Source: Setoptus koraiensis (lineage: Eukaryota; Animalia; Arthropoda). Taken from it: a stretch of 64,000 bases of DNA. The stretch is taken from contig CM106586.1 of assembly GCA_048013815.1 (NCBI GenBank), positions 868,001-932,000 on the forward strand, in the 5' to 3' direction. Shown piece by piece: positions 58,663 to 64,000 of the stretch. Each line of letters starts with the position of its first letter. Position 1 is the first letter of the stretch. A program made the translations under genes and the position numbers. The notes under the pieces were generated by a model. The model was not told the DNA's origin, searched no databases, and saw only the letters and a list, made by a program, of their open reading frames with translations.

Positions 58663-61600
58663 TTACAGCGACATGATAACCTGTGTAATATAGGAAAAGA
58701 TATAAGAGAAATGATAAATATATTAATATCAAGTTCATATAATTATGAGGTGGTGACAATGACGAGGGGACCAATGACATGGGCTTGCAAAACGCTTGTA
58801 GAAGCTACACTGCAACTAGCACATGAACCCTCTACATGGGTCGATATGTACTCATTGACATGGGGTCACATATTTGAGCTGATGAGGGGACTAACGATAT
58901 GGGTCTGCAAGACGCTTGCAGAAGCTGCAGACACTGGCATAACATATGAACCATCTATATGGGTTGATATGCACTCACTAACATGGGTCCATATACTTGA
59001 ACTAATGAGGGGACTAATGATATGGGTCTGCAGAACGCTTGTAGAAGCTACAGACACTGATATAACACTAGAGCAGGTACTCATCACACAGGCACTCTAC
59101 ATAAGAGTTGACTTGGACAATTTATCACTAAGTCCAATTTACATTGGATACCAATATATTGAGGCGGTCTACACACTAATGGACCAATACTTACTTTGCT
59201 GGTATATAATAAGTTGTTGTATGATAAAGTGCTACTATATGAATGTACTAACTGATATGAAAATGAAAAATTATCAAAAACGACAAAGTCCAAATTTTGA
59301 TATTTTCGTAAGTAATGATGCGATTAATTCGAATGAAATTAAATTAGTCTTGCTCGGTGTGCGGTCAAAGTGCGAATGCGACATAATTGTCGTGTGCACA
59401 CTAACCAGACAACGCACACATGAATTGCACGTCCGCGTGCACACACAGCACACAGATGCCTCAGGCTTCACAGTGCATAGCACTTGCCTCCAAAGGGGGA
59501 AAGCAATAACAATTAACACTGTTAATACTAACAGTTCGATTATCGTCTGCACAGTACAATCACATGACGATGATGATGACGACAACACAGTTCTACTGTT
59601 TACAGGCAACTGTCATCATCTTCATCATCATCATCATAGTCATCATCATCAGCATGACTCACGGAGCATTACAAACAAAGCTCAATTCACAATATTACCT
59701 GTGCGAATAGTTAGTGACCGAAAAGTTAAAGTCGAACACATACACATTCATTCACTTGACCTTTCAACAACATACAACAACTATTCAAAAGAGCAGAAAT
59801 TCACAAGAATCAAACACAAAAATTCAAACTTTAATAGAATTAGTAAATTAATTAACAGTGACCATAACAAGATGACCATGCATAAATATGATGGTTCAAG
59901 AGCCTATTTATTAAGGCTACTTGATGAAATGTCACAGCAGCGCGTGCGCCGAGACACCACAGGGAGTTCCGCCCCCGCAGACTTAAATAACAATGACATT
60001 ACGTCTAGCCTGACCAACACCAACGATGGCGATTTAAATAATAATATAAATAACCGAACACCGTTAGGTTATATTCATTCATTAGTTAATTCTTCAGCAA
60101 GCGACAGCGAAGAAGACATAAAAGATAAGTTAGTTATAGACATGGATAAATCTGACATCATTAATAACAACGAATCAGACATTGCCAATAAAAACATTGA
60201 CGAAAATAGACCCACTCTACGAAGTGACAAAGTTAAGCGCAGCATGGCCAACAAAAACGGCACACCTGTACCATCATCACAGGGTAGTAATGCAAGCACC
60301 AGCAAGCGCAAAAAGTCAAAAGGCAACAACAATATGGCTAAAACAATAGCCCTAAAAAAGAACAATATAACCTCAGTCATTGACGAGGATATCAACAATC
60401 GCCGCGACGTATTCACTGAATGGCACATCAATTTATCTCGCATTATCAATAAGACGAGCTTGCTAATTAGAAACTTGAAAAAGTATCAATTAACAAAGAC
60501 CAACATCACCATCGACATGGTCAGTAATGAAGTCAAAATCTCAAGGGAAAAATTCGAAAAAGAATTTAAAAAGACCCTTGAGACTATGTACATCAAAGAG
60601 GTCATAGTTGCCTCGAGAATTAACAACATAAAATATGCCTGGCTCAATGAGGACAAGTACAGCCCAAAGGGTCATATACTATCCAAAGGGGCCAAAAAGG
60701 GCATTTTTACTGATCGAGTTGATGATAATGATAACCCCAACAATAAGGGGGAATATTGGACCGATATAATGAGGGAGATCTCTTCATTAGGTAACAGCAT
60801 CTTAGCACGCGAAAGCGAGATCATCGATTTAACAATCGACAGAGACAATAAGAAGAAAACTCTTCATGTAAACCATTGCTCGGGCATGCTATTTTTAAAT
60901 ATCAGACGCCTGGTAGACAGCATGGACGATTTTATTGAAGATCATGACAACATTACCCATGTCATCTTCAAAGAGAAAAACAAAGCAGTGTTGAATCTAT
61001 TATTCAATGGTAACAACAATTACAATAAAAACTCATCACTAAATGATGATGAGGTAGAACAGTATATTAGAGAGTATATGGTCAAAATTATTATTACACA
61101 TAACATGGAGCATTTATATAACTCCCATGTTAGGCATTTAATTGATAATCTTTATTATTATGGTAAATTCACTTATTACCAAGTCGTTATTATTTTCATT
61201 CGATTCAAATTAAATAGGTTATATTATAGAAGACCTATAATAGTACTTAGTGACTATTTTACTAACTTTGATTTACATTCTATACTCATAACAAGGAGAC
61301 ATATTTATCATAGGTTAACTTACCATGAAAACACTCATGATAGGCCAACCTATTATGAATATACCCCTCATGAGTCCACCCACAAAGATCTCCCTCATAA
61401 CAAACCTGATTATAACACTACATCCCTTTCTAGGGCTGAATGTTGTAAAAAGATTCGACATGGGGACCATCGATATGGGTTTACAAAACGCTTGTGGAAG
61501 CTACGCACACAAGCAGTAGATATTGAAGAGGTACAATGTACCCCATGTAACCATATCACTACTAGCACCTCATTATATGGGGACAGACAAGTAATAATAC

Positions 61601-64000: not shown

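Follow-up and report, generated by a model that had tools for sequence, protein, structure and literature searches.

What keeps the plus strand of this locus open to translation is the question raised by a stretch of DNA of 64,000 nucleotides (hereafter the window), in which a giant frame runs without a stop codon up to the window end (Table 1). The first-pass annotation held that selection acts on the openness of the frame and not on its amino acids, and saw direct evidence of this in a DNA repeat read in two registers. The proposal is supported, mostly from outside the repeats, whereas the repeats were credited with more than they can carry: selection for openness is supported because of the codon usage of an antisense gene (m1), a second locus, neutral changes without stop gain and in-frame indels. 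As to what the openness would serve, we lean, without great confidence, towards a LINE-like element with antisense cargo whose frame is kept open so that ribosomes reach the enzyme on its own RNA, a reading referred to here as translation in cis.

The giant frame and the gene on its opposite strand

The left limit of the giant frame is the edge of openness rather than a mapped 5′ end, with dispersed repeats adjoining on the left; the first ATG lies at 55372. Against expectations computed from base composition, segment by segment, the frame has no stop in 1,318 codons over the antisense gene (68 expected), in 399 codons from that gene to the ORF1-like part (27 expected), in the 423 codons of the ORF1-like part (29 expected), in the 258 codons of the spacer containing repeat set B (18 expected) or in the last 695 codons (49 expected). 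The remaining two plus frames contain 12–118 stops per segment. A depletion of AATAAA on the plus strand is unsupported (7 against 10.3 expected, P = 0.18).

Table 1 Features of the window, with strand and main characteristics.
Feature	Position	Strand	Description
Giant stop-free frame	54721..63999	+	3,093 codons, 0 stops; still open at window end
m1 antisense protein gene	54655..58674	-	1,340 codons; codon-aligned with giant frame
324-base internal duplication, copy 1	58175..58498		92% identical to copy 2; offset 1,803 bases (601 codons)
324-base internal duplication, copy 2	56372..56695		92% identical to copy 1
Predicted splice acceptor	58681..58730	-	Pyrimidine tract ending CAG, 7 bases before m1 start codon
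Repeat set A	58760..59068	+	Cores 58766-58807, 58886-58927, 59009-59050; units of 120 and 123 bases
ORF1-position segment	59872..61140	+	Begins with ATG; low-complexity, then charged
Repeat set B	61458..61792	+	Cores 61462-61503, 61606-61647, 61750-61791; units of 144 bases
Endonuclease-like domain 1	61900..62460	+	Degenerate; catalytic Glu and Asp-x-Asn positions replaced; 21% to domain 3
Endonuclease-like domain 2	62722..63270	+	Degenerate, with Lys for Glu and Gly for Asn; PF14529 match (E 0.0015) under the cut-off
APE-type endonuclease domain 3	63508..63999	+	QING, FSEP, SVY, GDFN intact; cut by window end
Second locus plus frame	23281..26529	+	Stop-free, 1,082 codons; part outside dispersed repeats ~23453-26526
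m2 antisense ORF	24046..26607	-	Codon-aligned; 41.6% identical to m1 over 214 residues
Predicted phase-0 intron, second locus	23974..24156	-	183 bases; GTGAGT donor, long pyrimidine tract and TAG
Further antisense ORF, predicted next m2 exon	23422..23973	-	183 codons, same register

The antisense product is composed of an N domain, a helical C domain and then a low-complexity basic/acidic tail. Its start codon is at 58674; codon 4 is a stop in the window copy, which leaves an ORF at 58662–54655, and a sense codon in another version. Three outside homologues were found in a representative search (E = 2e-16 to 1e-8). There was no match for m1 in Pfam, the PDB or viral contigs, nothing significant in PDB sequence searches and no usable match for the C domain in the atlas; no related locus occurs in the viral or metagenome contigs searched, and an m1/m2 alignment search among proteins of 3,092–5,000 residues gave no homologue at E 0.001. 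Both structure models were poor (pLDDT 30.7 and 37.3), and Foldseek on the second returned no match at E 0.001. The stop codon of m1 is supplied by the dispersed repeat.

The codons that read as stops on the opposite strand are TTA, CTA and TCA (PMC6884476). In m1, none of 85 leucine codons is TTA or CTA and none of 46 TCN codons is TCA, with about 68 such forbidden codons expected; codons ending in A make up 25% in the other four-fold boxes. The two copies of the internal duplication differ with a pN/pS of 0.24 when read in the antisense frame (Fisher P = 0.0003), and the plus frame gives 0.80 (P = 0.64). Judged by these ratios, it is the antisense strand, that of m1, that is under purifying protein selection. 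One version of the element lacks 1,806 bases (602 codons) between the duplicates, corresponding to window positions 56689–58494.

Next to the start codon, the predicted splice acceptor faces a donor-like GTAAGT at 59194 on the minus strand, and because of these two sites m1 is likely to be spliced, with repeat set A inside a predicted 5′ intron. The antisense frame is closed in 58675–59871 (30 stops), while the giant frame stays open there. A second donor-like GTAAGT on the minus strand lies at 61323, 135 bases left of set B. On the plus strand, GTAAGT occurs at 59308, upstream of the ORF1-like segment, and at about 59345 is a TTAGTC that we take to resemble an arthropod initiator; it could initiate a shorter RNA without the cargo, and we count this against translation in cis.

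Other versions of the element were compared in contigs of runs from two studies, one of which may be the source sample of the window; of eight runs listed, none was of RNA. No single contig spans the locus. The contigs match the window with 0–7 differences over most pieces, and further versions occur at 82–90% identity; the differences visible for counting in other versions were 25 of 27, 14 of 23, 5 of 11 and 18 of 307. When five repeat comparisons are combined with that of one other version, 15 codon changes are synonymous in the plus frame against 16.8 expected at random, and stop gains number 0 where 4.8 are expected (the P values multiply to about 0.004). As far as these comparisons of sequence reach, the plus-frame product over the cargo and the repeats varies as though its amino acids were free of selection, and yet stops are avoided.

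Among indels of other versions in 58660–59600, six of seven distinct events keep the frame (binomial P = 0.007; sizes 12, 3, 6, 6, 3 and net 45), with two rows 2 bases apart counted as one event and two of the in-frame indels sitting in short repeats with a 3- or 6-base period; 12 of the 38 indel rows of one contig comparison were visible for this count. Inside m1, two single-base gaps are compensated. A single-base gap somewhere within one contig over 54637–55951 is counted against translation in cis. So is an 11-base deletion at 58726, which shifts the frame in a version with high contig depth in three of three runs. Contig depth on the endonuclease side is 53–55, 130–154 and 61–76, against 54, 169 and 72 for another version alone, so the frame-broken version may lack the endonuclease side, depth being no copy number.

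One repeat core read in two registers

The first-pass annotation had reported a repeat motif three times at 58750–59060 and three times, shifted by one base, at 61460–61800. At up to 3 mismatches the 42-base motif has six matches in the 64-kb window, as described, against 0.00 expected (100 shuffles). Sets A and B have only a core of 42–45 bases in common, and the rest of their units is dissimilar. The giant frame reads set A as a RGPMTWACKTLVEAT-like peptide and set B, whose register is offset by one base, as a HGDHRYGFTKRLWKL-like peptide: two unrelated peptides from one DNA core, both within the giant frame.

In the B register, 11 of the 48 codons of the set A copies are stops (3, 3 and 5 per copy, in five codon columns), as against none of 48 in the set B copies. 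The stop codons named earlier for set A (TGA, TAA and TAG) and the altered codons in set B are all present. That stops were removed specifically where needed is too strong a statement. Substitutions at would-be stops are enriched in seven of nine A–B pairs at P < 0.05 (range 0.00015–0.21), and random change of equal amount would open an A copy with probability 0.005–0.07; but the nine pairs count as about one event, since tandem copies lack independence, and there is some circularity in the test, because set B sits in an open frame and every A stop must therefore differ in B. In addition, a sense codon is already present in one A copy at four of the five stop columns. Another version of set A, with 25 visible changes, has gained three B-register stops and lost three, and since set A versions gain and lose stops freely, most of these stop differences may be drift in an unused frame. 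For four of the five columns, removal in B or gain in the unused frame of A would both fit. The strongest candidates for removal suggested by the alignment are a first-base C in set B, where all three A copies and two extra copies have a stop, and a fixed TGG. By themselves, the repeats are suggestive of selection for openness.

The two extra motif copies are loose ends in contigs of three runs, at positions equivalent to window 58766/58807 and 59009/59050. When read manually, neither is open in the B register; the third register is open in both, and for one of them no other register is. They place the motif in at least two more contexts, a recurrence that points to a nucleotide-level element, likely a putative protein-binding or promoter signal. 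The 7 Rfam matches with E up to 5 included no ribozyme, and 12 folds had no common structure (z-scores 1.0 to −2.5); a hammerhead or other known ribozyme was rejected for the motif on the grounds that it has no Rfam model match and no conserved fold.

Endonuclease-like domains and a second locus

The C-terminal third of the giant frame carries real protein domains. Domain 3 matches PF14529 at 30.9 bits (cut-off 27.4, E = 2.7e-7); its best structure match, the TRAS1 endonuclease (1wdu), aligns end to end but non-significantly (E 0.3–0.6). Domain 1 has no Pfam match of its own, and domains 1 and 2 together gave EEP-family clusters at 0.93 in the atlas, as a lead only. By their motifs, these positions of the domains are taken to correspond to E43 and D145 of L1. 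Mutation of these L1 residues abolishes the nuclease (PMC10830420). A search of 627 candidates for endonuclease homologues found none at E 0.001, and neither did a search with the C-terminal 1,379 residues against proteins of 1,701–5,413 residues (6,316 candidates).

Beside NMD avoidance and ribosome shielding, the annotation offered, as a third hypothesis, translation in cis through to 'APE/RT'. The endonuclease is there; as to the second half of that label, no reverse transcriptase was found by Pfam inside the window, which ends within domain 3, so only the APE part is seen. Matching contigs continue for 0.9–2.5 kb past the window end. The ORF1-position segment has no Pfam family above noise and lacks a CCHC knuckle, and no CCHC pattern occurs in the 3,093 residues of the frame; some non-LTR clades lack a gag-like ORF1. 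An ORF1 role for the segment is a guess from its position. The element is probably a LINE-like, APE-type non-LTR retrotransposon, a class assignment that rests on the endonuclease; neither an end of the element nor a target-site duplication is visible in the window. Contigs contain at least three versions at 82–100% identity, in addition to a 42% relative in the window, depth again being no measure of copy number. A Helentron was considered as well. Helentrons are Rep–helicase–APE elements, with Rep and helicase before the endonuclease in the same ORF; this identity was rejected, as the giant frame contains no Rep or helicase Pfam family at E 0.1.

The diverged relative, at 23–26 kb, is of the same design as the giant-frame locus by its sequence. 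Its antisense ORF, m2, has TTA or CTA in 0 of 51 and TCA in 1 of 70 of the codons concerned. The m1 and m2 proteins are 43% identical, against 25% for the corresponding plus-frame products (207 codons); a remnant of the N domain in m2 was not significant (E 0.11). Across the predicted intron the antisense frame has stops, and the plus frame has none in 60 codons counted (5.5 expected). The predicted next exon gave no match in Pfam.

Both edges of this second locus meet dispersed repeats. Its plus frame stays open only as far as 26527, and 4 stops fall in the 31 codons preceding the dispersed repeat; this is counted against translation in cis. The −1 frame is open beyond 26527; one lost base would explain the closure, and so could chance. 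No donor was identified for the segment right of 26526.

Translation in cis and other readings of the open frame

LINE enzymes bind the RNA that made them, a cis preference (PMC10830420), and because of it a stop or shift in the frame would be fatal to a copy of the element. Under translation in cis, a single long RNA would be made from the plus strand, containing the antisense gene and the still unspliced introns of that gene, and translation would start near the 5′ end of this RNA, far upstream of the enzyme. No enzyme would come from an RNA that carries a frameshift or an early stop, and such an RNA would not be copied, so that every insertion, duplication and point change would be filtered for openness. 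The motif would have reached its second location by copying, in a different register, and would have been tolerated there when this register was free of stops. A bolder form of this reading, which in our view falls somewhat short of probable, is a giant LINE-like family with several intron-containing genes backwards at its 5′ end; its whole RNA would be one frame fused to endonuclease and reverse transcriptase, translation through junk would act as an integrity check, and the 42-base signal would be read in all three registers.

The closest parallels to the codon-aligned design are the ambigrammatic narnaviruses. They too have a codon-aligned opposite frame (−0) that stays open through avoidance of TTA, CTA and TCA, the second frame is less conserved than the first, and translation itself has been proposed as the function of the open frame (PMC8316113, PMC6884476). 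That frames are kept open for translation is documented there, with the reason still debated (PMC8316113). Unlike narnaviruses, the sequence here is nuclear DNA of a likely retrotransposon, its conserved gene is apparently spliced, and the junk frame runs in register into enzyme domains and across non-coding DNA. A narnavirus identity was rejected for m1, which has no RdRp or viral match and lies in genomic DNA with splice-like signals.

From these viruses comes the main competitor of translation in cis, namely that openness protects the long plus RNA, either from nonsense-mediated decay or by means of ribosome coverage, and that the enzyme could come by another route, for example from an internal start. 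In Culex narnavirus 1, which shares the codon-aligned design and the less conserved second frame (PMC8316113, PMC6884476), the reverse frame is needed for persistence of the RNA (PMC8316113). Every openness result reported here fits protection of the RNA equally well, and such protection would spare the need for an enzyme that works with more than 2,300 junk residues attached, no 2A-like motif having been found in the giant frame. It does not, however, call for a junk frame that shares its register with the endonuclease, and yet there is no stop or shift between the cargo part and the endonuclease within the giant frame. We regard this explanation as unlikely, though with a real chance of being right; it and translation in cis are not mutually exclusive.

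That the whole frame is a functional polyprotein, with an N-terminal two thirds that is real and fast-evolving, is improbable. Its C-terminal part does have real domains, small samples leave room for weak constraint, and in one of ten segments tested, a repeat segment, the plus frame has an excess of synonymous changes (P = 0.04), a result also counted against translation in cis. These points are opposed by the higher plus-frame than antisense pN/pS between the duplicates, by synonymous changes that do not exceed the random expectation in the pooled comparisons, by the two unrelated peptides encoded by one core and by the lack of any Pfam family over residues 1–2390 of the giant frame.

We give a similarly slim chance to the view that the motif is the relic of a peptide repeat in the third register (MGLQNAC-like), of which sets A and B would be frameshifted copies. 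The third register is stop-free and apparently conserved across the six cores, the A1 and A2 cores differ there with pN/pS 0.16, and the two loose-end copies are open in this register but not in the B register. However, variable columns are spread 3/7/6 over the three codon positions, pN/pS within set B is 0.89 and 1.28, and stops occur outside the core. Such an origin is compatible with selection for openness. That the open plus frame passively follows from codon bias, arose by chance or reflects faulty assembly is very improbable. Codon-aligned antisense frames can reportedly stay open under extreme codon bias, and no one contig spans the window path, which lends this view some colour; against it, codons ending in A are common in m1 and m2 except for the three that give opposite-strand stops, the plus frame is also open where the antisense frame has its 30 stops, and contigs from two studies agree closely with the window.

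The locus shares some traits with known retroelements and differs from them in others. Like APE-type non-LTR elements (TRAS1/R1-like), it has the usual endonuclease motifs, an A-rich plus strand and probably several genomic versions; unlike them, it has two degenerate endonuclease-like domains before the intact one, no CCHC ORF1 and, upstream, at least 2,390 open codons within which an antisense gene lies. L1 has known antisense ORFs, ORF0 and a 1-kb reverse ORF over L1 ORF1 (PMC5203782), as have Retand and Grande (PMC11963269). These share with the present locus a retroelement with a conserved opposite-strand gene, beside which Retand also has tandem repeats (PMC5203782, PMC11963269). In L1, unlike here, the sense ORF1 is the conserved protein (PMC5203782); in Retand, unlike here, the antisense ORFs come after pol, and the excerpt of that source reports no stop-free sense bridge to the enzymes (PMC11963269). 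The literature searched, which lay outside most subscription journals, Repbase reports and supplements, contains no description of such a layout.

If true, translation in cis would add a second, testable case of a frame kept open, this time in a nuclear retroelement; the stretch concerned exceeds 5 kb and takes in an antisense gene, predicted introns and repeat clusters. To our knowledge, LINEs are not noted for carrying large 5′ cargo with introns, and the locus would, if the reading is true, represent a route for them to do so. L1 3′ transductions seldom exceed 1–3 kb (PMC6431247). Giant ORFs of this kind also mislead gene callers and hide the real gene on the opposite strand.

The remainder of the window is rich in repeats and remnants of other elements. 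An abundant dispersed repeat with ~51-base subunits and a terminal palindrome, found at 54529–54668, 26621–26855, 5516–5837, 46549–46770 and elsewhere, flanks both antisense-gene loci. On the plus strand at 51738–52697 is a cysteine-containing coding stretch with a C-terminal hydrophobic segment and stops at 52131 and 52482; it gave no Pfam support, and we presume a resemblance to a retroelement envelope-type glycoprotein. An assembly gap of Ns at about 43130–43640 has 157-base tandem repeats on its flanks. DNA transposon remnants lie at 9627–10487, 27758–28783 and 29394–29735 (a FLYWCH-MULE, a Tc1/mariner-like HTH protein and a Mutator-like fragment), and the FLYWCH-MULE transposase suggests that the DNA is that of an animal. 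At 49134–49584 a hexamer array of about 68 copies sits in a 336-codon minus-strand ORF, where it is read as Pro-Ala/Pro-Thr repeats.
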